Source: an uncultured Candidatus Saccharibacteria bacterium
Lineage (GTDB): Bacteria; Patescibacteriota; Saccharimonadia; Saccharimonadales; UBA7683
Direction of reading: 5' to 3'
Assembly (NCBI GenBank): GCA_964397855.1
Contig: CAYNKQ010000001.1
Span: 104,046 to 160,635 of the forward strand
Length of the DNA stretch: 56,590 nucleotides
Part shown: in pieces, positions 8,863 to 56,579 of the stretch
How the letters are laid out: every line of letters begins with the position of its first letter
Numbering within the stretch: the first letter of the stretch is position 1
Made by a program: the position numbers and the translations under genes
The notes under the pieces: model-generated
Seen by the model: the letters and a program-made list of their open reading frames with translations, nothing else
Told to the model about the DNA's origin: nothing
Databases searched by the model: none

Positions 8863-8864
8863 AA

Positions 8865-9640: not shown

Positions 9641-9646
9641 CATACA

Positions 9647-11405: not shown

Positions 11406-11477
11406 AGCTAAGCGATGGTATACTACTAAGTAGTAGCAATACCGTACTTATCTTTGCTGCGAAAGGAACTAGTCACC

Positions 11478-12209: not shown

Positions 12210-12890
12210 ATGAGAATACTCGTTGTAGAAGATGAACATAAAATTGCCAATTCTATAAAGAAAGGGCTAGAAACACAGCGTTACGCGGTTGACGTTGCGT
12301 ATGAGGGCGAAACTGGCTTAGCTATGGCAGTTGATGAGCCCTACGATCTTATTATATTGGACAGAATGCTTCCTGGATTAGATGGAATAGAAATACTGCG
12401 ACAAGTTCGCGAAAAAAATATTCACACACCAGTACTGTTTCTCACCGCAAAAGATAAAGTACTCGATAGGGCTACCGGACTTAACGCTGGCGCAGACGAC
12501 TACTTGGTGAAACCATTTGCATTTGTTGAGCTAATTGCACGAGTTCGTGCGCTACTGCGTCGACCGGCCACAGCTCAGTCGACAGTCCTGAGTTACCAGG
12601 ATCTTAAGTTAGACCCAGAGGCCTCGCTTGTCACACGTGGCGAAACCGTCATTGACCTTAGCCAAAAAGAATTTGCATTACTAGAGTACTTTATGAATAA
12701 TCCAGATCGTCCGCTCAGCAAAGATTTGCTTATTGAGCATGTCTGGAACTATGACGCTGATATCTTGCCCAACACCGTGGAGGTCTATATTGGCTACTTG
12801 CGTACTAAGATTGACAAGCGGTTTCGTGAAAGCCCAGACTTAATCCATACAAAACGAGGGTTCGGTTATATATTTGGGGTAAAAGCATAG
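12210..12890 (+). CDS. OmpR/PhoB-family response regulator
   Basis: Receiver domain MRILVVEDE...DLIILDRMLPGLDG...LTAK. Winged-helix output domain LSQKEFALLEYFMNN...VEVYIGYLRTKID. Confidence 0.92.
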   Translation: MRILVVEDEHKIANSIKKGLETQRYAVDVAYEGETGLAMAVDEPYDLIILDRMLPGLDGIEILRQVREKNIHTPVLFLTAKDKVLDRATGLNAGADDYLVKPFAFVELIARVRALLRRPATAQSTVLSYQDLKLDPEASLVTRGETVIDLSQKEFALLEYFMNNPDRPLSKDLLIEHVWNYDADILPNTVEVYIGYLRTKIDKRFRESPDLIHTKRGFGYIFGVKA

Positions 12891-13903
12891 TGTTTCACAA
12901 GACTTCCCTCAGACTTACCGCAATGTATTTGGCTATTGTTATGGCAATTAGCCTTTCTTTTAGCTTGACGCTGTACAATCTCTCAATGAGAGAGTTCGAC
13001 CGCGGGTTTCGTCGTCAAGATGAGCTGATTGGTCGTATTCCAGTTGATGGATTCTTCCCGCCAAATTTTCAACGTAGATTTATTCAGAGTCGCGAGACGG
13101 CAGCCGAAGAAGCCAAGGCAAGAATTTTAAGTGAGCTAATATTGGCAAACGTTGCAATCCTAATGCTAGGCGGTGGTCTAAGCTACTTCTTGGCTAGAAG
13201 GACGCTTGAGCCTATCGAAGAAGCTCACCAGTCACTGGAACGCTTCACTGCTGACGCGAGTCACGAGCTCAGAACGCCAATTGCGGCAATGCGCTCGGAA
13301 GTAGAAGTTGCATTGATGCACCCAAAATTGAAAGTCGCAGAAGCTAAAGAAGTTTTACAAAGCAACTTAGAAGAACTCGACCGTCTTACGCAGTTGACAA
13401 GTGGTCTATTGAGCCTTGCTCGGTTAGAAGATGACACACTAGATGTTAAGAATCAGGCCGTTGAGCCAATTCTAAAAACCGCGGTAGAAAAAGTCAGCGC
13501 TACTTCAAAGCAGAAGAATATTTCGTTCGCAGTGGAGGTGAGCGGCGATAAGCTTTCGGCTAAAGCCGACAAGGCTAGTTTGCTTGAATCGTTGGTTATT
13601 CTTCTAGATAACGCCATTAAATATAGTCCGGCGGGCTCTACGGTTGAGATAAAAGCTCGCAGGAAGAAGGACAGAGTTGTTATTAGTGTTATCGACCACG
13701 GTCGAGGTATTAAGCCGAAAGACCTTCCGTATGTGTTTGATAGGTTTTATAGAGCGGATATCTCACGTTCACGGCAGGAAACGTCTGGACATGGCCTTGG
13801 CCTTGCTATTGCCAAACAACTGGTTGAACGTCAAGGCGCGAATATTTCACTTACAAGTACGCTTGGTCAGTCAACTATGGCCACCATAACACTAAGTTCG
13901 TAA
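12890..13903 (+). CDS. Sensor histidine kinase (HisKA + HATPase_c)
   Basis: Two TM helices and the H-box FTADASHELRTPI. N/G boxes LLDNAIKYS and DHGRGI...GHGLGLAIAK. The GTG start overlaps the stop of the regulator by 1 nt. Confidence 0.9.
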   Translation: MFHKTSLRLTAMYLAIVMAISLSFSLTLYNLSMREFDRGFRRQDELIGRIPVDGFFPPNFQRRFIQSRETAAEEAKARILSELILANVAILMLGGGLSYFLARRTLEPIEEAHQSLERFTADASHELRTPIAAMRSEVEVALMHPKLKVAEAKEVLQSNLEELDRLTQLTSGLLSLARLEDDTLDVKNQAVEPILKTAVEKVSATSKQKNISFAVEVSGDKLSAKADKASLLESLVILLDNAIKYSPAGSTVEIKARRKKDRVVISVIDHGRGIKPKDLPYVFDRFYRADISRSRQETSGHGLGLAIAKQLVERQGANISLTSTLGQSTMATITLSS

Positions 13904-14064
13904 CCCATTCAGCCAACTCAACAAGTTCTGGGTTTGTAGACAGTATTCTTCGCAGCTTCCTTTATTAATTTTGTCTTTTTGACGGACACAGTCTTTGATG
14001 AATAGGCGAGGCAGCTGAGCCGCATCGAGAGGCGTTATTTTTAAATGCTTTAACTACGTACATT

Positions 14065-14097
14065 TCTCAGCGGTAGCTCAGCATCAAGATCTATACT
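14065..14097 (+). promoter_or_regulatory. Direct-repeat operator plus -10 element upstream of the ABC transporter operon
   Basis: TCTCAG at 14065-14070 and GCTCAG at 14076-14081, an 11-bp period. TATACT at 14092-14097. Flanks TTCTCAG...CTCAGC..CAAGA are shared with 12167-12195. Confidence 0.5.
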
Positions 14098-14136
14098 TCC
14101 TACTAGTTTATAAGAATGTAGAAGAAAGGAATGTAG

Positions 14137-15525
14137 ATGAACGTTGTTTCAAGAGGAGTAAGAAATGCGTTTCGCAACGTGATTCGTTCGGGGTCAATTA
14201 CGCTAATTTTAGGTTTAAGCATTGGGCTGAGTTTAACAATGTTGCTAGCGCATCAGGCGGTAGATAATAAAATAGCATCGGTCAAAAGTTCAATTGGTAA
14301 CACGATTACGATCTCACCAGCTGGTGCACGTGGATTTGAAGGTGGTGGTGAGCCGCTAACAATTCAACAGCTTGCAGAAGTTGCGACAACCGAGAATGTT
14401 TCCAGCGTGATTCAATCGCTTAGCGACAGGCTCACAACAGAAAATACATCGCTAGTCTCAGCTATTGATGCCGGTACACTCGGCAATCGTGGTGCTGGAA
14501 ACTCTGGGGTTGGTTTCCAGGCACCGCCAGCCATGGATCGTTCTGATATGAATGGCAGCTCTGCTGGCTCAGGTCAACAGGTCTCTCGTACATTTACACC
14601 TCCAGTCACCATAACGGGCGTCGATAGTCTCTCTGATGCTTCGGTATACGGCGGAGGCACAGTAACCTACAGTAGCGGAGAGGCTCTTGACCCTACGAAA
14701 GATGAAGATGTAGCAGTCGTTGGCAAGGCCTTGGCTGAAAAGAACTCGCTTACTATTGGTTCTACGTTTAAGGCGTATGGTACAGACGTTACGGTTGCTG
14801 GAATTTATGATACCGGCAGCGTGTTTTCTAATAACGGGCTGATTGTACCACTAGCAGCTCTTCAGAGACTCTCTGGTCAGCCAGCAAGTGTGACAAGCGC
14901 GACAGTAACCGTGAACTCGATTGATAATGTTGAAAACGCAGTTAATTCTATTCAGACAGTACTTGGCGAAGCGGCTGATGTGGTGAGCCAAGTTGATAGC
15001 GCAGAGTCTGCGGTTGAGCCGCTTGAGAATATTAAGAAAATCTCTGTTTTCAGCCTTGTTGGTTCAGTGGTTGCAGGAGCCACGATAATTCTTCTTACTA
15101 TGGTAATGATTGTGCGTGAACGCAGAAGAGAAGTTGGAGTGCTTAAAGCAATTGGTGCTTCAAATACAAAAGTTGTTGTACAGTTTGTTGTTGAAGCTCT
15201 AGCATTAACTCTTGCTGGAGCCATTATTGGCATAGTCATGGGGTTCTTTGCGGCTCAGCCAATCACAAAAATGCTTGTCAGTAGCAGCGCAAACTCTAGT
15301 ACACAAAACAACACTGGCCCTGGCCAAGGTGGCCCGGGTGGAATGAGTCGGCGACGAGGTTTGAGGTCTATCGAAACAAATATTCAAGACGTAACTGCTA
15401 TTGTTGACATCCGAACCGTGCTATACGGACTTGGTGCAGCCATGGTAATAGCCTTTGTCGGCAGCCTTGTTCCCGCGCTACTAATTTCTAAAGTTCGACC
15501 AGCAGAAGTAATGAGAGCAGAATAG
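14137..15525 (+). CDS. MacB/FtsX-type ABC transporter permease
   Basis: N-terminal TM helix, a large extracytoplasmic domain, then a C-terminal three-TM FtsX domain (VFSLVGSVVAGATIILL...RRREVGVLKAIGAS...). SD AAAGGA lies upstream. Confidence 0.85.
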   Translation: MNVVSRGVRNAFRNVIRSGSITLILGLSIGLSLTMLLAHQAVDNKIASVKSSIGNTITISPAGARGFEGGGEPLTIQQLAEVATTENVSSVIQSLSDRLTTENTSLVSAIDAGTLGNRGAGNSGVGFQAPPAMDRSDMNGSSAGSGQQVSRTFTPPVTITGVDSLSDASVYGGGTVTYSSGEALDPTKDEDVAVVGKALAEKNSLTIGSTFKAYGTDVTVAGIYDTGSVFSNNGLIVPLAALQRLSGQPASVTSATVTVNSIDNVENAVNSIQTVLGEAADVVSQVDSAESAVEPLENIKKISVFSLVGSVVAGATIILLTMVMIVRERRREVGVLKAIGASNTKVVVQFVVEALALTLAGAIIGIVMGFFAAQPITKMLVSSSANSSTQNNTGPGQGGPGGMSRRRGLRSIETNIQDVTAIVDIRTVLYGLGAAMVIAFVGSLVPALLISKVRPAEVMRAE

Positions 15526-15532
15526 GAGATTC

Positions 15533-16225
15533 ATGTTAAAAGTATCAAATCTTACAAAAACGTTTAGTTCCAGCGGGGGAACGGTGACAGCTGTCAGGGA
15601 TATAAGCTTTGTAGTGCCAGAAGGCTCGTTCGCATCAATAATTGGCAAAAGTGGATCAGGTAAAAGCACGTTGCTTGCAATTCTCGGTGCACTTGATAAG
15701 CCCACCAGTGGAAAAATTGAAGTCGATGGTAAAGACATCACCAAACTTCGCGACCTCGGGCTGGCTTCGTATCGCAGTCAAAAGATCGGCTTTGTGTTCC
15801 AAAATTATAACCTTATACCCAATCTTACTGCACTAGAAAACGTTATGTTGCCAATGGAGTTTGCTCGAACCAAGGTGGGCGGCCGTAGGCAGCGTGCAGC
15901 AGAGCTGCTTCGTCAAGTTGGGCTTACAGCGGAGAAGCATTTACGTCGGCCAGGAAAACTGTCTGGTGGCGAACAGCAGCGCGTAGCTATTGCTCGTGCA
16001 CTCGCTAATAAACCAAGCCTCATACTGGCGGACGAACCTACCGGAAACCTCGATAGTCAAACAGGAAAAATGATCTTTGATCTTTTACACAACCTGGCTA
16101 AAACTGAAAATACAACTATTATTGCCGTTACTCACGATCTTTCAATTGCAGGTAAAACTGACGTAACCTTTACACTCAAGGATGGCAAGATCACTAGTAG
16201 TGAGAAGCAACGAAACCTTAGTTAG
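15533..16225 (+). CDS. ABC transporter ATP-binding protein (MacB/LolD type)
   Basis: Walker [10 protein letters not shown], signature [15 protein letters not shown] and Walker [20 protein letters not shown] lies upstream. Confidence 0.92.
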
Positions 16226-18045
16226 TGATTGATAGTCAGTGAACCATCTGCTGATGAATTGTGGTGCCCATGGCTAACTTCTGGTATTTGTTCATTGGTA
16301 TCAAAGTGAACTGGCGACGTCGGTAAATCGGCTGTTGAAACAGGAGTAGCGTTGGTGTCAACTGCTGCCTCGGTTTGCGGCACTACAACCAAATCCTTAA
16401 GTGAGGTGTGCTGGGGAATCTGCTGGCCAGTTGGGGAGATATTTTCCAAAGGTTTGGCGATCGGGACTGGTTGCTCTGTTATTCCGTACCTTCCAACCAT
16501 TTCTGGTAGAGTTGTGTGGTGTTCTGGGCTAGAAGCTTCAAGTGGCTGGAACTGTGGTTCTGGCTGCTGAGGAAAGGGCGCTGGCTGAGGCATTATTGGT
16601 GTGACTGGCTCGGGCAAAGGTGTCGACGTAGAGGGAAGTACTGGAGCTACGTAGTTTTCTACTGAAAGCGGGTCAGAATAATAATTGTTTTGTCGTTTTT
16701 TACGCCAAATCATAAAGGCCACGAACCCACCACCGGCCAAGATGATTGGCAGAAGAATCAGGAGTATAGCCGGTGATGTCTTCTTCGCTGTAACTGCGGT
16801 TACTTTCGGCGCAGCTGATTGCTCGGTAAGTGCTAGACTGACGCGTTGGATCGGTGTATCATCGCCTTCCGGTAGGGTAACTGTGGCGTCTGTTTCTTGG
16901 GAAAGCTCATCTTTTTGTGCAAATATTGTTACATCGCCTTCCGGCAGCTCTAGTGTGGTTTCGCCGTTTTCGTCAGTGTTTTGAATAATTTCATCAACTG
17001 TAATGGTTGCATCTACAACCGGTGCTTCATCTTTGTCGGTGACTTTGATTACAACTGCAATTGGCTTGGTTGTGAACTCACTGTCAACGGTTACGGGACC
17101 ACTCCCGTCGTCGGCGGTTACGCGAATGTAGTATGCTGTGCCAGCTCGAAGTTTCTGGGCGTCGATCTCCATAGTATGCTGGGTGGTGGCTTCTGCGGAA
17201 ATTTGTTCAGTGGAAAGGTCGTCTGGGTTTGTCCCAAAGTTTATTTTGCTTGGGGTGGGTTTTGTTGTATTCCAAGACAAGGACGCCCCTCTGTAGCGCA
17301 GATTAGTAATAGTGAAGTCGGTTAGCTGTAGTCCGGTCTCAGAAGTTGGTGATTCCCCTGGGTCTTCCGGAGTGCTTCGGCTACTACCGCCACTCGGTGT
17401 TCGGGGTTTTGAAGGAGTTGGTGTAGTGGGGGTGGTAGACTTTGGAGCTGTTGGTTTTGTTGGAGTGGTAGGTTTTGTTGGCGGAGTCACGGGTGGAGTA
17501 ACAGGGGGGACAACAGGAGGGGTGACGGGTGGTGTTACCACCGGATTACTCACAGCAAAATCTGCTCTACCGACAGTAAAGCTGACATTATTTTTTGGGT
17601 AATTAATGATCTTACTCTCGGTACCTGGTCTGAATCCCCAGCTACCCGCTGCTGTTGCTTTGAATCGAATAGTTGCAAAATGGAAGTCACCGGCAGTTGT
17701 GGTGTTGCGTGTACTTTCCATGTAAATCTTGCCTTCAGCCCCTGGTGTATGTTTTGTGGTAGTGTTTTGATTAGGAAAATCTGCGCCTCGCTGAATGCTC
17801 AAAACTTGCAGTCCCCTGCCGTTGTAGTAAAGGTTCACAAAAGCAGCGTTGATAGGGCTCGGGCTGCTTACTCTAACGAGTGCGTTAAATTCTTGGCCAA
17901 CTGTGTAGCCCGCGGACGAAGGAGTGATGTATATTCGGCCACCGCTTGCGGCCTGTACGGAACTCTGGGCATCAGCAAAGTAGATCCCGCCGCCAAGCAC
18001 TGCGATCATACAGAGCACTAATATTTTGTGTACGAATTGTTTCAT
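16222..18045 (-). CDS. Large type-I membrane surface protein: cohesin-like + P/T linker + FN3-like + CarboxypepD_reg-like domains, TM, proline-rich cytoplasmic tail
   Basis: Signal peptide MKQFVHKILVLCMIAVLGGGIYFADA. Cohesin-like block RIYITPSSAGYTVGQEFNALVRV...FATIRFKATAAG. FN3-like block TITNLRYRGASLSWNT...YYIRVTADD. TM ILLILLPIILAGGGFVAFMIW. The stop region overlaps the convergent ABC ATPase gene by 4 nt. Confidence 0.8.
   Translation of the reverse strand: MKQFVHKILVLCMIAVLGGGIYFADAQSSVQAASGGRIYITPSSAGYTVGQEFNALVRVSSPSPINAAFVNLYYNGRGLQVLSIQRGADFPNQNTTTKHTPGAEGKIYMESTRNTTTAGDFHFATIRFKATAAGSWGFRPGTESKIINYPKNNVSFTVGRADFAVSNPVVTPPVTPPVVPPVTPPVTPPTKPTTPTKPTAPKSTTPTTPTPSKPRTPSGGSSRSTPEDPGESPTSETGLQLTDFTITNLRYRGASLSWNTTKPTPSKINFGTNPDDLSTEQISAEATTQHTMEIDAQKLRAGTAYYIRVTADDGSGPVTVDSEFTTKPIAVVIKVTDKDEAPVVDATITVDEIIQNTDENGETTLELPEGDVTIFAQKDELSQETDATVTLPEGDDTPIQRVSLALTEQSAAPKVTAVTAKKTSPAILLILLPIILAGGGFVAFMIWRKKRQNNYYSDPLSVENYVAPVLPSTSTPLPEPVTPIMPQPAPFPQQPEPQFQPLEASSPEHHTTLPEMVGRYGITEQPVPIAKPLENISPTGQQIPQHTSLKDLVVVPQTEAAVDTNATPVSTADLPTSPVHFDTNEQIPEVSHGHHNSSADGSLTINH
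17395..17547 (-). repeat. Low-complexity Pro/Thr-rich coding repeat (PPVT/PTKPT units)
   Basis: Residues 167-217 read NPVVTPPVTPPVVPPVTPPVTPPTKPTTPTKPTAPKSTTPTTPTPSKPRTP. The DNA shows reiterated ggtgg(a/t)gt(a/c)ac units. Confidence 0.85.
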
Positions 18046-40642: not shown

Positions 40643-41047
40643 CTACACTTCCATCCAATGAAGCGCATAGAGATCACTGGTGTCTGTAGCAGCAGGTGCA
40701 GCCCATACGGCACTAGTACCATCTGTTTGTAGTATTTCTCCGCTGTGTCCTGTCTGATCGGGCAAGAGTGCCTGCAGCGCGTTGGCGGCCGTCGTCTGTC
40801 CTGTGCCACCCTGGGCAATTGGTAATGCGTTTGCTAACGAAACTGAAGTCACGATTGGTGCCTCTGCGGTACCACTGAGATCACCACTAAGTTTCACCAC
40901 ACCTTTTGTGTTTGTAGTGGCATCAGCCACTGTCGGCTGTGGACTTGTCTTAAGGGTTCCGTCTGGGTTGTGGGCAACGTGCAAAAAATCGTTAAGAACA
41001 GCTCCCCACGTACCAACGTCTTGGCCAGGTTGTGGAAGTCGCGCCAT
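40643..41047 (-). CDS. Phage tail-fibre-like protein (N-terminal-type module only)
   Basis: MARLPQPGQDVGTWGAVLNDFL... and LPIAQGGTGQTTAANALQALLP are motifs I associate with phage tail-fibre or minor-tail proteins. Its start overlaps the end of the upstream small gene. Confidence 0.6.
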   Translation of the reverse strand: MARLPQPGQDVGTWGAVLNDFLHVAHNPDGTLKTSPQPTVADATTNTKGVVKLSGDLSGTAEAPIVTSVSLANALPIAQGGTGQTTAANALQALLPDQTGHSGEILQTDGTSAVWAAPAATDTSDLYALHWMEV

Positions 41048-41048
41048 T

Positions 41049-41300
41049 TTACTGGATCACCTTTGCACTGATGAGGGGGTTCTTTGGGGGAATACCAGAA
41101 TAGCCGCTCCATCCGTAAGCACCAAGTTGAGGTCCAGGCTGTGAGGTCTTCTGAGGTAAGGACGTAGTCGCGCCATTAAGAGCTTTGAATATAAAAGGGA
41201 TGCCTACAACAGCCAGTAAAGCCATACCAATATGCATTAAAAATTGCCGACGTGTCATTTCGGTTTCTAGCAGGGTTTGAAATTTCTGCAACTCTAACAT
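41049..41300 (-). CDS. Small protein with twin-arginine-like signal/anchor
   Basis: ...EMTRRQFLMHIGMALLAVVGIPFIF matches the Tat motif (S/T-R-R-x-F-L) followed by an h-region. The C-terminus is Gly/Tyr/Pro-rich. Confidence 0.55.
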   Translation of the reverse strand: MLELQKFQTLLETEMTRRQFLMHIGMALLAVVGIPFIFKALNGATTSLPQKTSQPGPQLGAYGWSGYSGIPPKNPLISAKVIQ

Positions 41301-41338
41301 TTTGTTTTCCGTTTTTGTATTTTTAGTACCTATTGGTC

Positions 41339-41367
41339 AGTATAATAGGCTGCTGGGGTACTGTCAA
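41339..41367 (-). promoter_or_regulatory. Near-consensus sigma70 promoter internal to the operon
   Basis: The minus strand reads TTGACA, then a 17-nt spacer (gtaccccagcagcctat), then TATACT, about 38 nt upstream of ATG 41300. Confidence 0.6.
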
Positions 41368-41372
41368 CATGC

Positions 41373-42671
41373 TTATGTGTAGTTTATAGTGTAGATTAAT
41401 TTGAGGGTTTGGGTGTTATTTTTTACCACGGGGGTTGGCAAAAGCGCCCTTGTCCCCATTCCATCAAGCTGGCACGTCGACATACTGTAGCTAGAGCCGT
41501 CACCGTCTCTTAAGCAGAACACGAACTGGCTGGACGAAACCATATCAAAATCTCCACTACCACCGTTCCAATAACTGTATCCAAGATTTGTAGTGTAATT
41601 GGCGCTGCTGGGCACGTAGGCATGCATAGACACCTCAACGCCCGATGGCTTACCAGTTGAATCCCACGCTTGTATGCCAGATGTTGTCACACTGTTGACG
41701 AAGCGTCTTACCCAAAGCAAGTTTTTATATTTATCCCAAGCTATACCAGACACACCATTTGAGGGCGGTGTGCTAAAGGAAAAGTTGCTGACATCTGTGC
41801 CATCAGTAGGGCTTAGTTTCCAAGCGGTGTAATTATTGCTGCCATTATCAGTAATTGACCATAAATTGCTGCCATCGTGAGCAAGAAAACTGTAGGCACG
41901 GCTTGTTGGTGTAAACGGACCAGTTTGAAGCACCCCGCTAGCATTGTAGGCTGCGATGCGACGATCCGAGCCGTTGTCACCTATTACCCATAAAAAACTA
42001 TTTGTGCCATCCCACGCTATGCCACGAATCGCGCTGAACTGCCCATTTACATTAAACGTTGTTGTTTGGGCGTACGTTGTTGCATCAAGCACGTAGATTA
42101 TTGTATTACCAGTATTGCCAAAAGCCTGTGTAGGGTTCGCCTGCGTAAACCGTGTCCACCATGCGGGTGTTGCATTTGTTTTCTGTTGTGTCATTGTTTG
42201 GGTGAAAACGGGCATAGTAGCTGACTCAACTCGTTGTTGTGAGTCTATCCAGCCTACCGAACCAATAGTGCCATTAGCCGCGTGTGTTGGCCAGTCAAAC
42301 ACCCATTTAACGTGATCTGGCGTGGCCTCAATTTGGGTGGGGGCAGCAGTACCGCGCCATATGTCGGTTCCTGCATAGGTACTCTTAAGAGCGTATCCTA
42401 CGGTCTTGCCATACATAAACGATTCATTTGCGGGGTCTTCTGGCAGGGTTGAATCGGTTAATACAACGGCATTTGCTGCCCAGTGTGGCTGATAATCAGT
42501 ATCCACCCCTCCGAGCGCACCGAGCCCCGTCTTAAATGCATTACGTTGTTGCCAGGCACCATTAGCTATTGTTTGATTTGCAGCAAAGTTGTGAGTCACA
42601 CATTTTTGTAGTTCCCCAGTGTGTGCGTTGCGAAGTTCTAGAGTGATAGTACTGGTATAAGGCTGCTTCAT
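41373..42671 (-). CDS. Tail-fibre/adhesin-like protein, paralog 2 (conserved N-domain + repeat-rich, propeller-like C-domain)
   Basis: 432 aa. The N-domain shares DTDY...LTDS...EDPA...KWVFDWPTHAANGTIGSVGW with 42679..44016. The C-domain carries recurring blade-like units (IRGIAWDGTNSFLWVIGDNGS, YSFLAHDGSNLWSITDNGS, VSGIAWDKYKNLLWV). Confidence 0.75.
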   Translation of the reverse strand: MKQPYTSTITLELRNAHTGELQKCVTHNFAANQTIANGAWQQRNAFKTGLGALGGVDTDYQPHWAANAVVLTDSTLPEDPANESFMYGKTVGYALKSTYAGTDIWRGTAAPTQIEATPDHVKWVFDWPTHAANGTIGSVGWIDSQQRVESATMPVFTQTMTQQKTNATPAWWTRFTQANPTQAFGNTGNTIIYVLDATTYAQTTTFNVNGQFSAIRGIAWDGTNSFLWVIGDNGSDRRIAAYNASGVLQTGPFTPTSRAYSFLAHDGSNLWSITDNGSNNYTAWKLSPTDGTDVSNFSFSTPPSNGVSGIAWDKYKNLLWVRRFVNSVTTSGIQAWDSTGKPSGVEVSMHAYVPSSANYTTNLGYSYWNGGSGDFDMVSSSQFVFCLRDGDGSSYSMSTCQLDGMGTRALLPTPVVKNNTQTLKLIYTINYT

Positions 42672-42678
42672 AGTGCTC

Positions 42679-44016
42679 CTAGCTATAATCCATTCGATAC
42701 GTTATTCGTAGCGACTGTTGGTCGGTTTTTGTGATTGGACTTGGCAGCAGGGCTCTTGAGCCCATTCCATCGATTCGCAGCGTTTGCACCATGGTGCCCG
42801 TTGGATATGGATAGTAAGGAACGTTAGTGTTTGAGCCGTGAGTAGTTATAAGTCTGAGGGTGCTGTTTCCGCTGTAGTCAAAATAAGATGTCGATATATC
42901 CCCTTGATAGTAGTACCCTCGATTACCTTGGTAGAATGGCTGCATTGATATAAATGTGCCAGTGCTTTGTCCCGACAGGTTAAACACACTACACGCTAGT
43001 TGGCCAGAACCGTCGTAGACACCCCGTCCCAAAATGTAGAGGAGGCTTCGTTCTATGTCGTAGGCGATGTCACATACGTTTGCGGTTCCCGGAGAGATTG
43101 CGCCCGGATACGCGTTAAATTCTGACACGTCACCACCGGACGTATTCAATCTGTGCACATGCCAGTCAGTATTGGATACACTTACGGTTGTCCAAAGTGT
43201 GGTGCCATCAAAAGTGAGCCCGCGATATTGCCTATCGGTGACGGAAACAGGGGCATCAATAAGTGTGCCGTTTTCGCTATATGATGCGATTTGATTATTG
43301 CTAATAACCCACAACTTGTTGTTACTACTATCCCACGCAATCCCGCGGATCGATATAGTCGTGAAGCTAGCTTGTTGATCCATGTTGGCATCATATTTTG
43401 TAACAGTTGTATTGGTTCCGGCAAACAGTAAATTATCATTAACATAAGCGATGGGCCGATTGGTTAGTGGCACTTGTTTAATACTGGTTGCAGTAGTACT
43501 TTTACGTATGTCGGTCGGGAAGTATAAGCGAGATTCTGTAATATCAGGGTTACTATTCCACGATACCGAACCGATAGTGCCATTGGCCGCGTGTGTTGGC
43601 CAGTCAAACACCCACTTTGTGTGGGTCTGAGTGGTTTCAGACAGCCCAGCGTTAGGTGTTCCACGCAGTGTGTTGGCACCCGAGTAAGTTTCTTTGGTGG
43701 CATACCCGGTGATTTTACCGGGAAATGACCACTCAGTGGCAGGATCTTCTGCTTGAACGGAATCAGTGAGGAGGATATTGGTAAAAACACTTGGGACTGC
43801 GTAGTCGGTATCAGAAGCTGCGTTCAGTGTACTGATTTGGTTTTTAAAATTAGTCCGCTGTAAGTATCGCAAATATTCTTTACCGTGGTTAGCTATAAAG
43901 TTGTGGTTTTCTTGTTTTTCAACAAGCTTGCCAGTTTTAGCGTCAAAAAGTTCAACGGTGACTGTACCTTTGATGTTATCAACAGCCTGACTGGTGTTTA
44001 AATTTTCCTCCAACAT
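42679..44016 (-). CDS. Tail-fibre/adhesin-like protein, paralog 1
   Basis: 445 aa with the same N-domain (HTKWVFDWPTHAANGTIGSVSW). C-domain units are IRGIAWDSSNNKLWVISNN, YRGLTFDGTTLWTTV and VCDIAYDIERSLLYILG. Confidence 0.75.
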   Translation of the reverse strand: MLEENLNTSQAVDNIKGTVTVELFDAKTGKLVEKQENHNFIANHGKEYLRYLQRTNFKNQISTLNAASDTDYAVPSVFTNILLTDSVQAEDPATEWSFPGKITGYATKETYSGANTLRGTPNAGLSETTQTHTKWVFDWPTHAANGTIGSVSWNSNPDITESRLYFPTDIRKSTTATSIKQVPLTNRPIAYVNDNLLFAGTNTTVTKYDANMDQQASFTTISIRGIAWDSSNNKLWVISNNQIASYSENGTLIDAPVSVTDRQYRGLTFDGTTLWTTVSVSNTDWHVHRLNTSGGDVSEFNAYPGAISPGTANVCDIAYDIERSLLYILGRGVYDGSGQLACSVFNLSGQSTGTFISMQPFYQGNRGYYYQGDISTSYFDYSGNSTLRLITTHGSNTNVPYYPYPTGTMVQTLRIDGMGSRALLPSPITKTDQQSLRITYRMDYS

Positions 44017-44041
44017 TACAATCTAGTATAGTCCATCAAGC

Positions 44042-45274
44042 TTATGTTGTCACGGTATCTGTTGGAATGCTGTCGTACTGATGCGAATCGTTGATTGTAA
44101 TAGTGGTGGGTGCGGTGCTGTCACCAAGAATGGTGTCAGTAGGGGTGGCCGCATAATTATAAGTGTCATTTACGGTGATAATTGGCACCGAGTTAGTTCC
44201 CGAATCGTTGGTGCTATCCACGGGAATAGTCGCATAGCTGTAGGTATCGTTAATTGTGATGGTGTAGAGAGAAAACGGTGCGTCGGCTTCGAGTATATCC
44301 GCAGGAATAGCCGCATAGTTATAAGTGTCATTTACGGTAATAACTGCTGGATCAAAAGCCTCACTAAGAAGGCTATCAAGTGGGGGTATAGCGTAGGGCG
44401 CGTAATCTTGCACGCTAATGGTAAGGGCAGAATCATCCTGAATAATAGGCTTTAGGCTGGTAGATTTTCCAGTTCCTTCTAGGCTGTGGTTAGAAAACGA
44501 AACCATAGTGCTTGGTGCCAGTAGTTGTTCGCGACTGCGTCTAAATGGGGCATAGGGATCTTGCCAGAGCTGCCAAATTTCAGATGTTGATATGGGCCGC
44601 TCCCACACGTAGAGGGGTCCAAGGGTGCCGCCAAGGGGCGTGTTTCCACCGGCGGTATTACCGAGATATATCCTATTAACGGTAGTCGCCTGTGTGCCGA
44701 TTCCGCTGTTGTGTGCGGTGTATGAGACAGGCTGATCTGGCGCAGACGTGAATCCTTGGTTAGTTCGAAGTTGTGCGGGCGGAAGATCGGAACCTTCATA
44801 TACGGCAACGACCATCATGAGGTTGCTGGTAGGAAAATCTGAGGTTGGGAGAATCGAATAGGCGTCAGCGGTATTATACTTTTGCCAGCTCCATATTCCC
44901 TGATTATCTGCCCAAGCTCTTGTATGAGCTTCGCTTGGACCTTGCAAGGTTAAAATGCTTTTTTCGGTGCCAGACGGGGCTGCGTCAAGCTTGACCCAGT
45001 ATACAAAAGACCACTGACCTGGTAGCGTTTTGTTAATGCTGCCACTTTGAGCACTGGCACCTGGTCCAAAATGAAGCGTAGCAAGGCCTGCTTGTCTCGT
45101 GTGAGTAGTGTTTTGTAGTGTAAGGTCGCCAGCACTTCCCCATGAGCCGTGATTTCGCAGTGTTGTACCACCTTCAAGCAGTGGGTACGCAAGCACGAGG
45201 CCGTTTGCTAGAAAACGTGATTTTTCATCAGCGAGCCGCAACGGCATAGTTGGCGGGGTAAGTCGGGTAGGCAT
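44042..45274 (-). CDS. LamG/concanavalin-like lectin-fold protein with four C-terminal tandem repeats
   Basis: WSFVYWVKLDAAPSG...MMVVAVYEG...NRIYLGN...GTLGPLYVWERPISTSEIWQLWQDPYAPF is typical of Laminin_G_3 domains in phage tail or baseplate proteins. The C-terminal repeats have the form IT[VI]ND[TS].[NSQ]Y...P.D. Confidence 0.75.
   Translation of the reverse strand: MPTRLTPPTMPLRLADEKSRFLANGLVLAYPLLEGGTTLRNHGSWGSAGDLTLQNTTHTRQAGLATLHFGPGASAQSGSINKTLPGQWSFVYWVKLDAAPSGTEKSILTLQGPSEAHTRAWADNQGIWSWQKYNTADAYSILPTSDFPTSNLMMVVAVYEGSDLPPAQLRTNQGFTSAPDQPVSYTAHNSGIGTQATTVNRIYLGNTAGGNTPLGGTLGPLYVWERPISTSEIWQLWQDPYAPFRRSREQLLAPSTMVSFSNHSLEGTGKSTSLKPIIQDDSALTISVQDYAPYAIPPLDSLLSEAFDPAVITVNDTYNYAAIPADILEADAPFSLYTITINDTYSYATIPVDSTNDSGTNSVPIITVNDTYNYAATPTDTILGDSTAPTTITINDSHQYDSIPTDTVTT
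44045..44350 (-). repeat. Four tandem coding repeats of about 26-28 aa (last one truncated)
   Basis: VITVNDTYNYAAIPADILEADAPFSLYT / ITINDTYSYATIPVDSTNDSGTNSVPI / ITVNDTYNYAATPTDTILGDSTAPTT / ITINDSHQYDSIPTDTVTT. In the DNA, compare ataattataagtgtcatttacggtgataat (about 44155) with atagttataagtgtcatttacggtaataac (about 44315). Confidence 0.85.
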
Positions 45275-45277
45275 ATC

Positions 45278-45769
45278 TTAATACTGGTACACAGTAAGGC
45301 TCAGATGTACATCGGTCGCCGCATTAAATGTTCCATGCTGAGTAAGGGTAACTAGGTAGCCGTATAACGAAGTAGAGTTGGTGGTGTATGTAAGGCCGAT
45401 CGCAGAAAGACTTGTCGCGCGGTTATTTACCAGTGTGGTTGGTCCTGGAAAAGAAACCGTACCTACGTAGTGCTGCATATCGCTATCTGAAAAGTTGGCG
45501 GCTGTTTTGTCGGTTGCTGGTGTTACTGGTTGTGAGAACAAGTAGAGATCAGTCGCACCTATAATATTGGCGTTATCAACCAAAGTTGCCGAAGTAATGG
45601 TAGAAAATCCACTTGTTGCACGGGTGGCATTCGTAAATTCAATTTGCCCACCCAGTTGGTTATTTGGTGTGTAGCTTGCACCACTGGTAGAAAGGCCATT
45701 AGTAGAGGCCGTCAAACGACGAACAATTGGCCTGGGGTCAACCGCATTTATGTTGGTAGAAAGTGCCAT
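45278..45769 (-). CDS. Hypothetical beta-rich protein (operon gene 2)
   Basis: 163-aa ORF, Thr/Ser/Asn-rich, with no TM or signal peptide. Its start overlaps the stop of gene 1 (TAATG). Confidence 0.65.
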   Translation of the reverse strand: MALSTNINAVDPRPIVRRLTASTNGLSTSGASYTPNNQLGGQIEFTNATRATSGFSTITSATLVDNANIIGATDLYLFSQPVTPATDKTAANFSDSDMQHYVGTVSFPGPTTLVNNRATSLSAIGLTYTTNSTSLYGYLVTLTQHGTFNAATDVHLSLTVYQY

Positions 45770-46101
45770 TAACTTACTTCCACTCCCGAAACAGTCACGG
45801 TCACTGCGGCAGCCGTACTGTTCCTACCATATAGCTGTGCACCAGTTGGCAGCACAATGCTGCAATCAAGTGTACTCATACCATGGGGCGGTATCCCGAG
45901 TTGAGACACGATGCGGTTAGAAGGCTGCGCGACACCACTTGGCGGTATAACATTAAGAGTGATAGTAGCCTCGTTATTGGTTGTATTTGTCATAACAATA
46001 TTTTTAACGATAATACTTTTTCCTGATGGTACTGTATAAAGAGTTCCACCGCTGTCTGGCGGAGTATTGGTTGGGTAGAAAACAGTTGGAATATAGGGCA
46101 T
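45769..46101 (-). CDS. Hypothetical small beta-rich protein (operon gene 1)
   Basis: 110-aa ORF. TLYTVPSGKSIIVKNIVMTNTTNNEATITLNV...LPTGAQLYG...VTVSGVEV resembles small proteins I recall from phage tail modules (unverified). Confidence 0.65.
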   Translation of the reverse strand: MPYIPTVFYPTNTPPDSGGTLYTVPSGKSIIVKNIVMTNTTNNEATITLNVIPPSGVAQPSNRIVSQLGIPPHGMSTLDCSIVLPTGAQLYGRNSTAAAVTVTVSGVEVS

Positions 46102-46190: not shown

Positions 46191-47753
46191 ATGCAATTGA
46201 TCTACAGCCATCTCAAAAGAACGCGCTACATCTTGATAGCCGTATTGATACTAGGATTTCTAAGTCTCTGGCAGCCTGTAAGAGCCCAGTATGGCAGCGA
46301 TGCTTACGGTGCCTGTGCGTATGGCGAGGCCTGTCCAGAAGATCCGATAATAAAAGAAAAGCCTCCTGTGGTCACTCCAAATGAAACCACGCCACAATCT
46401 GCTCAATCAGAACCAAAGATCACAGAAGATTCACCAAGGGTAGTACAGAAGGGCGCTCCCGCCCACTGGTTCGCGCGGATATTTTCTCGTCTGTCTCCCA
46501 GCAATCAAACACTCTTGCCGTATTATCTTTGGATACTCCTCCTCATATTGGCAATCATCTTGTTGATCCAGGCGTATATAGATAGACACAGAGTAACCAA
46601 GCTGATAAAACAAGTCGAATCACTAGAGGCAGTAATTCACGAGCGTAAAAACTTTTTAAGGCTGGTATCCCATTACTTAAATACGCCACTGACTGCTATT
46701 AAAGGAGGACTAGAGTTGATGACTTCAACCAGTACAGTTGATTCCGCCGTCTTGCAGCCGCTACACGCGGCAGCCCTGGAGCTCACGGCTGTTGGGCAGC
46801 AGGCGCAGGCCGATGCTGCACTCGAAACTTCTTCAACTCAACAGGCCGACACGTCACCCCCAGGCCTGGGTAGTATACTGGGCAAGTGGTACTGCTTTAT
46901 TCCCATAATTGTTGCGCTTTTGCTAGGACTTGGCATCAACTATCTACTGGTGCATACCAATACGGTACAGCCAGCTCACGCTGCTATATATCAAGTAGCG
47001 GTCGCCATTATGTCAATCCTTATTTTCGTTAACGCGGCTAGAATGTTTACACTGGGGCGTACGCACAAAAAAATGCTCAACGTGCTTGCCAATAGTATCG
47101 CCGAGCTTAATAAAAAACGCGAGCTTGTGTTGCTTGAATTGAGCCAGTCACTTCATTCGCTTGTTACGAGGTTTAAGCAAGGCCTAGAGGGTCTTGCTGG
47201 TGAGAAGTCTGCTAAATATATTGCTGGAGGGGTCTTGGCCCTTGCAGATGTTAGTACTAAAACTCGTGCCGCAACAGGGTGGTTAAGCCCAGACGTTCAA
47301 GAGGTCAACGTCCGTGATCTTATGCAGTCGGCAGTCAATAAATACCAAGCTGAAGCTGACAATCGATCTATTACATCTAATATTCAATATAATATTGAAG
47401 GCTCGGTTGCGACTCATACTAATGACCTTAGCTTTATCATGGAGAATCTTGTAAGTAACGCTTTCGCATATAGCAAAGACAAAGGGGAAGTTGTGCTGGA
47501 GGTCGCTGAGTTCAAAAATCAACTGCGCATCACAGTTCGAGATAACGGCGTGGGTATGACTCACAGGCAAGTTGAAGAACTATTTCACCCGTTCGCAAAA
47601 GTTGGTGACGTGCTTACATTTGATCATTCAGGTATTGGCTTAGGGCTCTACGCAAGTAAACAGGCGGCAGAGCGTCTTGGCGGTGATATAACGGTTACAT
47701 CTAAAAAAGATGTTGGCACTGAGTTTGTTGCTGCGCTACCTATGCAAGTGTAA
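46191..47753 (+). CDS. Orphan membrane sensor histidine kinase
   Basis: Signal/TM segments, an H-box-like FLRLVSHYLNTPLTAIKGG, and HATPase_c boxes (ENLVSNAFAYS; VRDNGVGMT; GIGLGLYASKQAAERLGGDITVTS). No response regulator lies adjacent. Confidence 0.8.
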   Translation: MQLIYSHLKRTRYILIAVLILGFLSLWQPVRAQYGSDAYGACAYGEACPEDPIIKEKPPVVTPNETTPQSAQSEPKITEDSPRVVQKGAPAHWFARIFSRLSPSNQTLLPYYLWILLLILAIILLIQAYIDRHRVTKLIKQVESLEAVIHERKNFLRLVSHYLNTPLTAIKGGLELMTSTSTVDSAVLQPLHAAALELTAVGQQAQADAALETSSTQQADTSPPGLGSILGKWYCFIPIIVALLLGLGINYLLVHTNTVQPAHAAIYQVAVAIMSILIFVNAARMFTLGRTHKKMLNVLANSIAELNKKRELVLLELSQSLHSLVTRFKQGLEGLAGEKSAKYIAGGVLALADVSTKTRAATGWLSPDVQEVNVRDLMQSAVNKYQAEADNRSITSNIQYNIEGSVATHTNDLSFIMENLVSNAFAYSKDKGEVVLEVAEFKNQLRITVRDNGVGMTHRQVEELFHPFAKVGDVLTFDHSGIGLGLYASKQAAERLGGDITVTSKKDVGTEFVAALPMQV

Positions 47754-53185: not shown

Positions 53186-53983
53186 ATGGCTAAGAAAAAA
53201 GTATATGGAAAATGTAGGATTTGCGGTGAGGAAAAGCAACTCACCCAAGAACACTACATACCCCGCGCAGCTGGTGGTGGTACAAAGAGGACGCTTTATA
53301 GTGGCGATGAGCTAATCAAGACACTGCACAAAGATGAGGACGGTAATGACTATAAACCGCGCGGCAAAATTAAACAAAATGGACTTTCTGACTATTCCTT
53401 ATGCAAGGAGTGCAATGAGCTATCAGGCATTCTATACGATAAAGATTTCGCCGAGTTTTATAAGCGCATTCACTATGTGATAACCTCGTCAACCGAAATC
53501 CCTAAAGGCGTAAACATAGATGAATATCTTGATAAAAAAGTTGCAACAATAGTACTGAAAGATATTAAGCCGTTTAATATCGCCAAGCGTATGCTGGTGT
53601 CCTTTTGTACTATTGAACACGCTGGGCTTACAGACCGGCAGACAGAGATAAGGAAGGCTATCTTAGATAAAGACTACCAACCAAACACCGATAACTTTGC
53701 TTTATATATGAGCCTACACCTAGGTAATAGTGCCTTTTATGGTACGGTTGCCGCATTAAAGAATGTAGGTGGCAGGCATTTCAGTCAGGTTTATGCAGGG
53801 ATTGAGAGTGAGCTGGTAGCGTTCTATTATTCTGCGGATAAGGATACAAAAGCCGTGGGATTAGACAACTGTACTGATATTACGCCGTGGCTTACGCGAT
53901 ATAAATATGACCAAATAGCCACGATAAAGCTAGAGTTAATGTTTAATAAATCGTTAATGATACGCTTTCCAATAAGCTCATAA
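53186..53983 (+). CDS. HNH endonuclease-family protein (HNH_5-like N-terminus + unknown C-terminal domain)
   Basis: GKCRICGEEKQLTQEHYIPRAAGGG...(about 40 aa)...LCKECNELSG gives CxxC...EH..P...CxxCN, a beta-beta-alpha-metal finger. About 170 aa of C-terminal domain is unassigned. TATAAT lies 6 nt before the ATG. Confidence 0.7.
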   Translation: MAKKKVYGKCRICGEEKQLTQEHYIPRAAGGGTKRTLYSGDELIKTLHKDEDGNDYKPRGKIKQNGLSDYSLCKECNELSGILYDKDFAEFYKRIHYVITSSTEIPKGVNIDEYLDKKVATIVLKDIKPFNIAKRMLVSFCTIEHAGLTDRQTEIRKAILDKDYQPNTDNFALYMSLHLGNSAFYGTVAALKNVGGRHFSQVYAGIESELVAFYYSADKDTKAVGLDNCTDITPWLTRYKYDQIATIKLELMFNKSLMIRFPISS

Positions 53984-55007: not shown

Positions 55008-56579
55008 ATGTACGATGAGCAGGAGCTAGACCTAAGAACGCTTAAATATGTGCTGTACCTGCGTAAGTCCACTGAGGATGAGGGCAGGCAGATTAGGTCT
55101 ATTAAAGACCAAGAGCAGGATTGTAGAGACTTAGCTAAACGCTTAGGGCTAACTATCGTTGACACCATATCTGAGCAAAAATCGGCAAAGAAACCAAACA
55201 ACCGCCCTGAGTTTACCAATATGCTAAAGCGCATCAGGGCTAAAGAGTTTGATGGCATTATTGCTTGGCATCCCGACCGACTTGCCAGAAATATGGTTGA
55301 GGCGGGCAAAATTATTCATATGCTTGATACGGATGTTATTAAAGATATTCGTTTTGTTTCGCATCAGTTTTCAAACGATGCAAACGGCAAAATGCTTTTG
55401 GGTATGCTGTTTGTATTTAGCAAGCACTATTCCGATGACTTATCTAGCAAGGTTACGCGCGGGGTAAGGGGTAACTTGCGCGACTATAAATCAGGTGGCA
55501 CGCCAAAACACGGCTATATACGCGACACTGAGGGCATCTACCGCAAAGACGGCGATAACTTCACCATCATACAGACGGCGTGGCAGATGCGGGCTAAGGG
55601 CGTAAACCAGCAAGAGATTTGCGACTACATAAACTCTCAGGGCTATCAAAAGTTCATAGCCAAACGCGGCGGTCATACTACATTTACGATGGCTGACAGT
55701 ACGCTGAGCAACTTATTCAAAGACACCTTTTATTATGGTGAGCTAAACCAAGCTGGTCAGACCATTGACTTAATAACAGCGCCAGTACCATTTGAGCCAA
55801 TGATTGACCGAGATACATTCTTTATGGTCCAAGAGCTTAGCAGAACTAGGCGGCGTGCTAGCAAGAAAAACCGTAAGCCAATCTTGCCACTTCGCTATAT
55901 GGTTTATTGCGATGTATGTAAGTTTGATAAACCGATGCAAGTCGGACGCACGCGAGGCAGGGATAAAGTTCATCGCCTCAACTATGCTTGCCTAAATAAG
56001 GATTGTCCGAGAGAAAGGGGCTACAAGAGCATTCGCGGCAAGCTGGTGTTTAGCGAGATTGATAGAGTAATAAAAGAGAAACTGCTCAGCTTGCCTGATA
56101 GCGCATACGATGAGTACCTCAAAGAGATTAAATCTTATAGCGATACAGCCAAAACAAAGTTGCGCTCTGACCTTAGTAGAGCAAGGACAACTAAAGCTGG
56201 TTATGAAAAGAAAATAGCAGAGTTGTCGCCAAGCCTATCAATCATAAAAGACGAACGCGCCCTGCAAACCATCACCGAGCAGATTGGCGAGGCATCGCAA
56301 ATCGTACAACAGCAAGAGCAACTTATTGAGAAATATCAGAGGAGTATTGAGCGCAGCACCTTGCCTGCCATTGATAAAGATGAGTTTAAGGCTACCCTAA
56401 AAGAAATGGCTCAAAAGCTCAAAGCTGCCGATGTGGTTCAAAAGGACATCATTGTCAGTAATTTGTTTTTGAAACTCTATTTTGACCAACAAAAAATGAC
56501 GCATTACTCCTTTAAAGAGCCAGTTGCGTCATTAGTTGCGTTACCGTCATTCCAAACTGGTGGGGGCGCCTGGACTTGA
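55008..56579 (+). CDS. Large serine recombinase / integrase
   Basis: Resolvase catalytic domain YVLYLRKSTEDE...(catalytic Ser)...GIIAWHPDRLARN. Recombinase domain GGTPKHGYI. Zn ribbon YCDVCKF...YACLNKDCP. Coiled-coil C-terminus. TGgTAGAAT lies 7 nt before the ATG. Confidence 0.9.
   Translation: MYDEQELDLRTLKYVLYLRKSTEDEGRQIRSIKDQEQDCRDLAKRLGLTIVDTISEQKSAKKPNNRPEFTNMLKRIRAKEFDGIIAWHPDRLARNMVEAGKIIHMLDTDVIKDIRFVSHQFSNDANGKMLLGMLFVFSKHYSDDLSSKVTRGVRGNLRDYKSGGTPKHGYIRDTEGIYRKDGDNFTIIQTAWQMRAKGVNQQEICDYINSQGYQKFIAKRGGHTTFTMADSTLSNLFKDTFYYGELNQAGQTIDLITAPVPFEPMIDRDTFFMVQELSRTRRRASKKNRKPILPLRYMVYCDVCKFDKPMQVGRTRGRDKVHRLNYACLNKDCPRERGYKSIRGKLVFSEIDRVIKEKLLSLPDSAYDEYLKEIKSYSDTAKTKLRSDLSRARTTKAGYEKKIAELSPSLSIIKDERALQTITEQIGEASQIVQQQEQLIEKYQRSIERSTLPAIDKDEFKATLKEMAQKLKAADVVQKDIIVSNLFLKLYFDQQKMTHYSFKEPVASLVALPSFQTGGGAWT

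Follow-up and report, generated by a model that had tools for sequence, protein, structure and literature searches.

A conserved operon of phage-type receptor-binding and tail proteins in Candidatus Saccharibacteria and its association with Tat genes and a sensor kinase

A 56,590-nucleotide stretch of DNA from an uncultured Candidatus Saccharibacteria bacterium (contig CAYNKQ010000001.1, positions 104,046 to 160,635; this whole 56.6-kb stretch is referred to below as the window) carries an operon of seven genes. They encode, in order, g110, g163, a LamG protein, two receptor-binding-type paralogs (RBPa and RBPb), a small twin-arginine protein (RR83) and a mini tail fibre. Sequence comparison traces five of these proteins to components of phage virions or tails, which apparently came from more than one kind of phage, and the operon very probably represents a maintained, functional, phage-derived module. 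That this module acts as a binder outside the cell is rather likely. The fuller reading which we prefer is that of a domesticated phage receptor-binding complex, which would be assembled in folded form in the cytoplasm, exported or anchored by way of the twin-arginine translocation machinery (Tat) and used for binding at the surface, and we give this reading about an even chance.

A sequence-only reading of the same DNA had left two alternatives, namely that the operon is the only surviving block of a degraded prophage, or that it is a domesticated recognition system used by the cell itself. The analysis described here favours the second of these and essentially refutes the first. The kinship with phage tail fibres and receptor-binding proteins, for which that reading had relied on motifs, was borne out by both sequence and synteny.

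Phage relatives of the operon proteins

RBPa and RBPb share 34% identity over their full length and both match the PHROG family phrog_25763 (E 4.3e-27 and 8.8e-19, respectively). By tblastn, the first ~150 residues of RBPa were found to be 38% identical to gp33 of Geobacillus phage GBSV1 (E 9e-15); the gp33 counterpart in Bacillus phage 1 also matched this N-terminal domain, and a weaker match, spanning half of RBPa, was obtained to a Clostridium phage. The GBSV1 and Clostridium phage records both give the gene order tape measure, Dit, Tal, RBPa homolog, holin and endolysin, and it is in this slot, after Tal and before the holin, that siphophages of Gram-positive bacteria keep their receptor-binding protein. 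A full-length homolog, P0076, which is 29% identical over 98% of RBPa with the propeller domain (described below) included, occupies the equivalent slot in a Thermoanaerobacterium prophage. Within IMG/VR, relatives of RBPa or RBPb were present in 33 viral contigs or loci at 25-38% identity, and no viral copy exceeded 38%. To our knowledge, phage proteins of the GBSV1 gp33 type are uncharacterised and annotated as hypothetical, their receptor-binding role being read from gene position only.

Structure models were obtained for two of the proteins, RBPa and g163. The AlphaFold (AF2) model of RBPa (predicted local distance difference test, pLDDT, 92.5) contains a propeller of about five blades at residues ~171-405, and the strand pattern of the model indicates that residues ~15-160 and ~406-445 together form a single beta-sandwich domain, the anchor domain. 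Foldseek comparison of the RBPa model with the PDB returned generic WD40-type propellers only, which confirms the fold class but not the function, and a sequence search of the PDB with RBPa gave nothing useful. Among the predicted viral structures of BFVD, the top three matches were uncharacterised Siphoviridae proteins (E 4e-19 to 2e-14), with generic propellers far behind at ~1e-8. Median identity to RBPa over 56 homologs was 48% in the N-terminal part and 55% in the C-terminal part, as against 28% in the propeller, and a fixed anchor carrying a variable propeller, as suggested by these sequences, is the usual pattern of a receptor-binding protein. The homologs of RBPa fall into 106 clusters of a large protein collection, nearly all of them metagenome proteins and one labelled Candidatus Saccharibacteria, and the anchor domain marks this large unannotated family as a phage tail component.

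The most conserved gene of the operon is g163, with 53-73% identity to its orthologs. The AF2 model of its product (pLDDT 81) is an eight-stranded beta sandwich or jelly roll, for which Foldseek gave weak matches in the PDB, to viral capsid jelly rolls and the C-terminal domain of Chlamydia Pgp3 (E about 1e-4, low template-modelling (TM) scores) and to the TNF-like tip of the Bdellovibrio Bd2734 fibre (E 5.6e-4, TMq 0.26). An exhaustive profile search with g163 retrieved 1749 representative clusters. Among the best 150 of these the domain is located at the extreme C-terminus of proteins of 150-980 amino acids (aa), and in seven such proteins that were inspected the N-terminal parts resemble repetitive fibre shafts. 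Scans of the long proteins with Pfam and PHROG revealed no informative N-terminal domain, and no model of either collection covers the g163 domain. The domain looks like a widespread family of phage fibre tips, unannotated so far. It was also found within virion modules in 21 IMG/VR contigs. In one of these (L026) the g163-domain gene lies between the portal gene and the scaffold and major head genes, while in another (L038) the order is protease, capsid protein, g110 homolog, virion structural protein, fibre-like protein and g163-domain protein, with an endolysin two genes further on. A match of g163 to N4-like Rhizobium phages was weak (1e-4) and is superseded by the profile search.

The g110 homolog in the tail module of L038, placed between the major capsid protein and the endolysin, matches g110 from end to end (32% identity; hidden Markov model E 4e-12), and g110 itself matches phrog_1276 (E 1.4e-7). 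A tblastn search of cultured phages with g110 gave no match, and searches of PDB sequences with the g163 and g110 profiles gave nothing useful.

The mini tail fibre passes the Pfam model for DUF5907 (PF19264; 31.4 bits against a cut-off of 27, E 2.2e-7, residues 42-73), and over residues 1-38 it shares 55% identity with collagen-repeat proteins of Streptomyces phages, BRock among them. Longer orthologs of the fibre match PHROG minor-tail and tail-fibre families at ~1e-6, and the variant in one related locus (L006) has many tail-fibre family matches, down to 1e-19. Conservation is seen at both ends of the fibre, whereas loci differ in how many internal GGTG-containing repeats they have. A search of PDB sequences with a long ortholog gave nothing useful. 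In L006 and in a second related locus, L045, the fibre gene stands upstream of g110 (L006 1-6178; L045 1570-1854); that of L006 contains collagen repeats and follows genes for three large LRR_5 repeat proteins, and neither the kinase nor the tat genes discussed below adjoin it.

For the LamG protein, tblastn against cultured phages detected no phage relative, and a sequence search of the PDB was of no use. The evidence for a LamG domain in it is mixed: the window protein itself, at 23.7 bits (E 5.7e-5), falls below the Laminin_G_3 cut-off of 27.6, whereas 27 of 28 homologs, the window protein's own cluster included, carry the precomputed PF13385 label. These homologs amount to only 28 clusters, all of 408-430 aa, and every one with an inspected gene neighbourhood belongs to this type of operon. 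Of the C-terminal repeats, four had been recognised and are clear; a fifth, degenerate one had been missed, giving a total of five repeats of ~27 aa over residues 286-410. The LamG protein was also considered as a Tal-like docking partner and rejected (hhalign probability of LamG against Tal, 0.2%).

Conservation and setting of the operon

Relatives of the operon were sought through the contexts of homologs, in species-representative genomes, in metagenomes and through a gene-position index. Fifteen further loci, a minimum count, were found to have the same genes in the same order, making 16 loci with the window, and all those with an organism name are Candidatus Saccharibacteria. The common order is g110, g163, LamG, RBP paralogs, usually a spacer, the RR83-type (RR) protein and the fibre, with the number of RBP paralogs differing between loci from two to three. 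Identities to the window proteins range from 36 to 52% for LamG, 33 to 49% for RBPa, 43 to 60% for RBPb, 33 to 51% for RR83 and 45 to 71% for the fibre, and the g110 orthologs are 50-63% identical across related loci. RBPa and RBPb each have their own, closer orthologs in other loci, and the duplication that gave rise to them thus predates the divergence of these lineages.

In the closest pair of loci, L003 and L014, the operon genes gave a pN of 0.09-0.22 with pS saturated at 0.70-0.90, and lie in a similar range to the neighbouring tatC (pN 0.13) and kinase (pN 0.21) genes; pN and pS are given rather than dN/dS, since synonymous sites are saturated even in this pair. The sequence-only reading had proposed checks of synteny and of selection. 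The first showed the gene order to be kept among cellular genes in the 15 other loci, and the second, from the low pN and saturated pS of L003 against L014, pointed to purifying selection.

These results bear directly on the possibility that the operon is the last remaining piece of a degraded prophage, with no function in the cell. All the recognisable homologs are indeed phage tail or virion proteins, and a serine recombinase and a stretch of low G+C lie ~5-10 kb away in the window (51-56.6 kb). However, the conservation data contradict this explanation: gene order is kept across lineages, each of the two RBP paralogs has its own orthologs outside this lineage, the genes are under purifying selection, and the operon is linked to cellular genes. 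All seven reading frames in the window are moreover intact, no viral relative exceeds the 38% identity given above, the G+C of the operon is not anomalous (0.46-0.48 against ~0.45), and four housekeeping-type, cellular genes stand between the operon and the recombinase region. We therefore regard a prophage remnant as extremely improbable, and favour the domesticated system, kept in the chromosomes of one Candidatus Saccharibacteria group.

A degraded copy was observed at only one of the related loci. L007 has an extra, partial operon (7487-11436) in which g110 is accompanied by a shortened g163 and by pieces of LamG and RBPa, after which comes an intact LamG-RBP-RBP-RR-fibre set (12297-17857); L052 has the same flanking genes as L007 and the whole operon intact. 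The partial copy could be the real decay of a duplicate or an artefact of assembly.

The flanks of the related loci were inspected over ~10 kb per side by means of precomputed Pfam labels, alongside the 56.6 kb of the window. No capsid, terminase, portal, tape-measure, tube, sheath, Dit, Tal, integrase or lysis gene was present in the annotated flanks of the related loci. This has to be weighed against another explanation, in which the operon would supply the host-range cassette for some larger tail-like particle (a tailocin, a gene-transfer-agent-like particle or an injection device) encoded elsewhere in the genome. An RBP anchor of this type is encoded next to Dit and Tal in siphophages and presumably docks on the tail tip, the operon contains no recognisable docking partner, and it is to the DNA just specified that the inspection extends; all of this is in keeping with a particle encoded at a distance. 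In contrast, the structural and lysis genes of such a particle are lacking from the annotated flanks, and the consistent neighbours of the operon are Tat genes and a kinase rather than phage structural genes. The genomes are also very small, the largest contig among the loci being 701 kb and saccharibacterial genomes being below 1 Mb (PMC12173739). On balance, we consider a cassette of this kind improbable.

The features of the operon in the window are collected in Table 1. The seven minus-strand open reading frames between 40643 and 46101 agree in coordinates and lengths with those read previously, as shown by the list of open reading frames, and the 1-nucleotide (nt) TAATG overlap of g110 with g163 and the gaps of 3, 25 and 7 nt between the next genes had likewise been given correctly. 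The genes of 83 and 134 aa had, however, been described as overlapping, which is wrong, since 1 nt separates them (TAA-A-ATG). The internal consensus promoter that had been noted matches at 11 of 12 positions and is the best site of the region, yet it is a consensus match only, and promoter-like sites in the region are not more numerous than in shuffled sequence. The 72-nt spacer recurs in L003, L007, L014, L052 and L053, sometimes enlarged by genes on the opposite strand.

Table 1. Features of the operon and its divergent neighbour (window coordinates)
Feature	Position	Strand	Description
g110	45769..46101	-	110 aa, all-beta, operon gene 1
g163	45278..45769	-	163 aa, stand-alone jelly-roll domain
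LamG protein	44042..45274	-	410 aa, N-terminal concanavalin-A-like/LamG jelly roll and C-terminal repeats
RBPa	42679..44016	-	445 aa, phage receptor-binding-type protein
RBPb	41373..42671	-	432 aa, RBPa paralog
Promoter-like site TTGACA-17-TATACT	41339..41367	-	in 72-nt spacer, ahead of RR83 and fibre sub-unit
RR83	41049..41300	-	83 aa, twin-arginine signal or signal-anchor
Mini tail fibre	40643..41047	-	134 aa, DUF5907
Sensor histidine kinase	46191..47753	+	HisKA and HATPase_c, divergent from operon

The operon is set among cellular genes from 33.7 to 51 kb of the window. Domain annotation identified a TrmB-type methyltransferase, MscS, the histidine kinase, a Mur ligase and a major facilitator superfamily (MFS) transporter, which upholds the earlier description of the flanks as cellular, and the outer flanks contain an L,D-transpeptidase and a base-excision glycosylase. 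Within ~7 kb on either side of the window operon there is no capsid, terminase, portal, tape-measure or lysis gene, which supports the earlier reading. Scans of the window for tRNAs and Rfam families gave no match, and no tandem repeats of relevance were detected in the DNA.

Two further parts of the window stand out in composition. Between 51000 and 56590 the G+C drops to 0.41-0.43, and Pfam matches are confined to two open reading frames, one for an HNH-like protein (53186-53983), the other for a large serine recombinase with Resolvase and Recombinase domains (55008-56579); a 155-aa open reading frame beside the recombinase has its only match on a 3.4-kb contig from another sample. This part may mark the border of an integrated prophage or other mobile element which runs past the end of the window. 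A minus-strand open reading frame of 607 aa (16222-18045) coincides with the G+C maximum of the window (0.505) and with its most pronounced AT skew (-0.196).

The twin-arginine protein, the tat genes and the sensor kinase

RR83 has the elements of a Tat-signal motif, with TRRQFL at residues 16-21, a hydrophobic segment at residues 20-38 (Kyte-Doolittle 2.29) and K39, and these are followed by a tail of ~40 residues with a conserved YG..(Y) motif. It is the only protein of the operon with a hydrophobic segment; signal peptides and membrane segments are absent from the other six, in agreement with the previous statement that the large proteins lack signal peptides. Ten RR83-type sequences from different loci all keep (S/T/D)R(R/K)(Q/E)FL, the hydrophobic stretch and the YG motif, most of them also keep the basic residue after the hydrophobic stretch, and no conserved AxA cleavage site is apparent among the orthologs. 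RR83 is related to the NCBIfam family NF038009, 'twin-arginine translocation system-associated protein' (41 bits, E 1.7e-10), and its ortholog in L007 scores 17.1 bits in TIGR01409, a general model of Tat signals, which is above the cut-off of that model.

The gene for the RR83-type protein lies directly upstream of the fibre gene in nine loci (the window, L001, L003, L007, L014, L018, L051, L052 and L053), where the two genes either overlap by 1 nt or are set 1 to about 45 nt apart. The sequence-only reading had drawn attention to the Tat-like small protein, and this hint is reinforced by the genomic context: 9 of the 16 loci have tatA and/or tatC beside the operon, and three arrangements occur. 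In the first (L003, L007, L014, L052 and L053), tatC, the kinase gene on the opposite strand and tatA precede the operon. In the second, tatA and the kinase gene stand on one side and tatC follows the fibre gene (L001); L017 and L019 have the tatA-kinase side, and their contigs stop before the far end of the operon. In the third (L051), the operon is followed by co-directional tatA and tatC. In a 2018 comparison a complete Tat system was present in only one of the Saccharibacteria genomes analysed (PMC6031116), a count which, although the sample is old and small, suggests that Tat is not a common neighbour by default.

At two of these loci further features of the tat region were observed. In L051 (12696-14518), tatA and tatC come after the RR and fibre genes with short gaps, as if the four formed one transcription unit. 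In L053 (2426-5996), a Cu/Zn superoxide dismutase and a GSDH-type propeller dehydrogenase are encoded just upstream of tatC, and these two proteins could be conventional Tat or Sec substrates.

An ortholog of the sensor kinase is divergently adjacent to the operon in 12 of the 16 loci. The ectodomain of the kinase is short, with a conserved Cys motif at residues ~33-50 (approximately YG-x-D/N-x-YG-x-C-x-Y-x-x-x-CP), then a proline-rich linker, and the motif occurs also in L001, L003 and L007. The tail of RR83, with GAYGWSGYSG, loosely resembles this YG-rich motif. From this resemblance it is conceivable that the kinase and RR83 share an extracellular ligand or contact.

Folding and oligomerisation of phage fibres and receptor binders take place inside the cell, in the cytoplasm, and their release is normally a matter of lysis. 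Their display without lysis would therefore need a route for the export of folded proteins, and Tat is proposed as this route because six of the proteins have no export signal, the signal of the seventh is of the Tat type and tat genes are neighbouring; an alternative route is not apparent. The Tat system moves folded proteins and can take signal-less partners along with them, with HybOC and DmsAB among the cases of such hitch-hiking. In the simplest model that accommodates these facts, the parts, among them a lectin-like LamG protein and a short tail fibre of the trimer type, would assemble in the cytoplasm and the RR protein would bring the assembled parts to Tat, where it would either carry its signal-less partners across by hitch-hiking or stay behind in the membrane, with its N-terminus in and its C-terminus out, as an anchor for them to dock on. 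The anchor variant is favoured because the RR protein has no conserved cleavage site. After export, the binding partners of the complex would be cell-wall glycans or proteins on another cell, most plausibly those of the Gram-positive host of an epibiont. The host cell wall is suggested as the target because the organism would be an obligate epibiont of Gram-positive hosts and the ancestors of the binders belonged to phages that infect Gram-positive bacteria; adaptation to different hosts would fit with the variability of the propellers and the shifts in paralog number, and the sensor kinase may time or control the expression of the operon.

The separate elements of this scheme differ in strength. 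That Tat and the RR protein provide the export or anchoring route is plausible, though we place it somewhat short of an even chance, and a host bacterium as the target is put forward more tentatively still. The scheme in its complete form, in which Tat and a dedicated carrier or anchor of ~80 aa display a pre-assembled phage-derived complex without lysis, under control of the kinase, for host recognition and attachment, is doubtful as a whole and is offered as a working model.

Several observations weigh against the proposed export and binding complex. Four of the ten RR83 orthologs have RK instead of RR. RR83 remains below the NF038009 cut-off of 100, with its orthologs at 22-36 bits, and is thus a relative of that family rather than a member, and in TIGR01409 it reaches 13.4 bits against a cut-off of 16.7. 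Neither tatA nor tatC lies within the window, and L012, the closest relative of the window, is without tat genes in the part of the contig that is available. The operons of L006 and L008 have no adjacent RR gene and no tat genes nearby, and the RR-like gene of L045 is ~4 kb away from its operon; the RR83-type gene is therefore not a strictly obligatory neighbour. The sampled loci could in addition represent a narrow clade, in which some of the Tat linkage would be inherited rather than selected. Lastly, no protein of the operon is homologous to a known docking partner such as Dit or Tal.

Some of these points would equally suit an explanation in which the Tat linkage concerns the small RR protein only, and the fibre-like proteins are cytoplasmic or are released in another way, by lysis or in vesicles. 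NCBIfam calls the related family merely 'Tat system-associated', and the operons of L006 and L008 and the window itself manage without tat genes in their vicinity, the former two without an RR gene as well. In contrast, it is the fibre gene which the RR gene adjoins in nine loci, and not tatA or tatC. In the window, too, the RR and fibre genes have remained together despite the lack of tat genes close by, and the linkage of tat genes with the operon persists through three different rearrangements. Thus an association of Tat with the RR protein alone appears unlikely to us, although it is the least unlikely of the rival explanations.

The nature of the ancestors also invites the view that the operon is an anti-phage module, acting by receptor masking or as decoys or sensors in the manner of superinfection exclusion. 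The receptor binders from which it derives naturally target Gram-positive cell walls, the envelope of Saccharibacteria is of the Gram-positive type (to judge from the localisation-prediction setting in PMC6031116), and variability of the propeller and changes in paralog number would be expected of an arms race. However, a PADLOC search with the seven proteins and the kinase gave no match at E <= 0.01, the annotated flanks contain no defence-island neighbours, and the steady linkage is with a sensor kinase and a machinery for export. For the masking of a receptor, a set of seven conserved structural genes would also be elaborate. We accordingly hold an anti-phage role to be improbable, and retain the domesticated, surface-acting receptor-binding complex as the preferred reading.

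Comparison with known systems

How the ultra-small epibionts among the Patescibacteria, or members of the candidate phyla radiation (CPR), choose and attach to their hosts is poorly understood; for oral strains, a role has been attributed to type IV pili and to a small number of adhesins (PMC10633639). The genetic study of one cultivated saccharibacterium laid its emphasis on adhesins, type IV pili and a type IV secretion system, and a search of its text for Tat, laminin and propellers gave no mention of them (PMC10633639). Within the literature that could be searched, we found neither the operon nor DUF5907 described before, nor any connection drawn between Tat and fibre proteins in Saccharibacteria. 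If the proposal is true, the operon would be a candidate determinant of host range in environmental Saccharibacteria, phage-derived and new for Patescibacteria. It would likewise add a new class of Tat cargo and an answer to the problem of exporting fibres that have folded and oligomerised in the cytoplasm without lysis of the cell. Apart from this, the g163 tip domain and the RBP anchor domain flag two large unannotated families as phage tail components, of which g163 deserves a family definition.

By descent, the closest known proteins are those encoded after Tal in siphophages (GBSV1 gp33, Bacillus phage 1, the Thermoanaerobacterium prophage and PHROG 25763), to which there is true sequence homology and with which the operon proteins share the layout of a conserved anchor domain and a variable propeller. 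In contrast to the siphophage genes, those of the operon stand alone in a cellular chromosome, without Dit, Tal, tape-measure, tube or lysis genes, and the operon RBPs, unlike the siphophage copies, are stable paralogs which form a clade of their own (<=38% identity to viral copies) and have a linkage with Tat and a kinase. The operon resembles tailocins and contractile injection systems in that domesticated phage tail parts, fibres included, are used by the cell; the tube, sheath or tape measure, baseplate and lysis genes that define such systems were, however, not found in the locus or the inspected flanks.

For the proposed mode of export, a precedent is the three-subunit E. coli PaoABC, which hitch-hikes via Tat (PMC4273604). 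The operon is like the Tat hitch-hikers in having one subunit with a twin-arginine signal and signal-less partners encoded beside it. The known cases, however, are cofactor-containing redox enzymes whose signal-bearing subunit is of full size, whereas the RR protein has only ~40 residues past its signal and the proposed cargo consists of phage-type fibres.

By use, the closest known system is that of the mosaic adhesive trimer (MAT) fibres of Bdellovibrio bacteriovorus. This predator displays phage-fibre-like MAT proteins with swappable tips, TNF-like jelly rolls among them, for the recognition of its prey (PMC10769870). MAT proteins are single long polypeptides that make trimeric beta-prism/beta-helix fibres with the exchangeable tip at the C-terminus, whereas the operon encodes multiple short, separate chains, most of them without a signal peptide, and is linked to Tat; no sequence homology of the operon proteins to MAT proteins was detected, and the fold match of g163 to the Bd2734 tip is weak (TM 0.26). 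If our proposal is true, the operon would be a second independent case, after the MAT fibres, in which phage recognition parts are re-used by a bacterium that exploits other bacteria. What is known is thus the co-option of phage recognition hardware by a bacterium-dependent bacterium, and what is new here is the multi-gene architecture together with its linkage to Tat and a sensor kinase.

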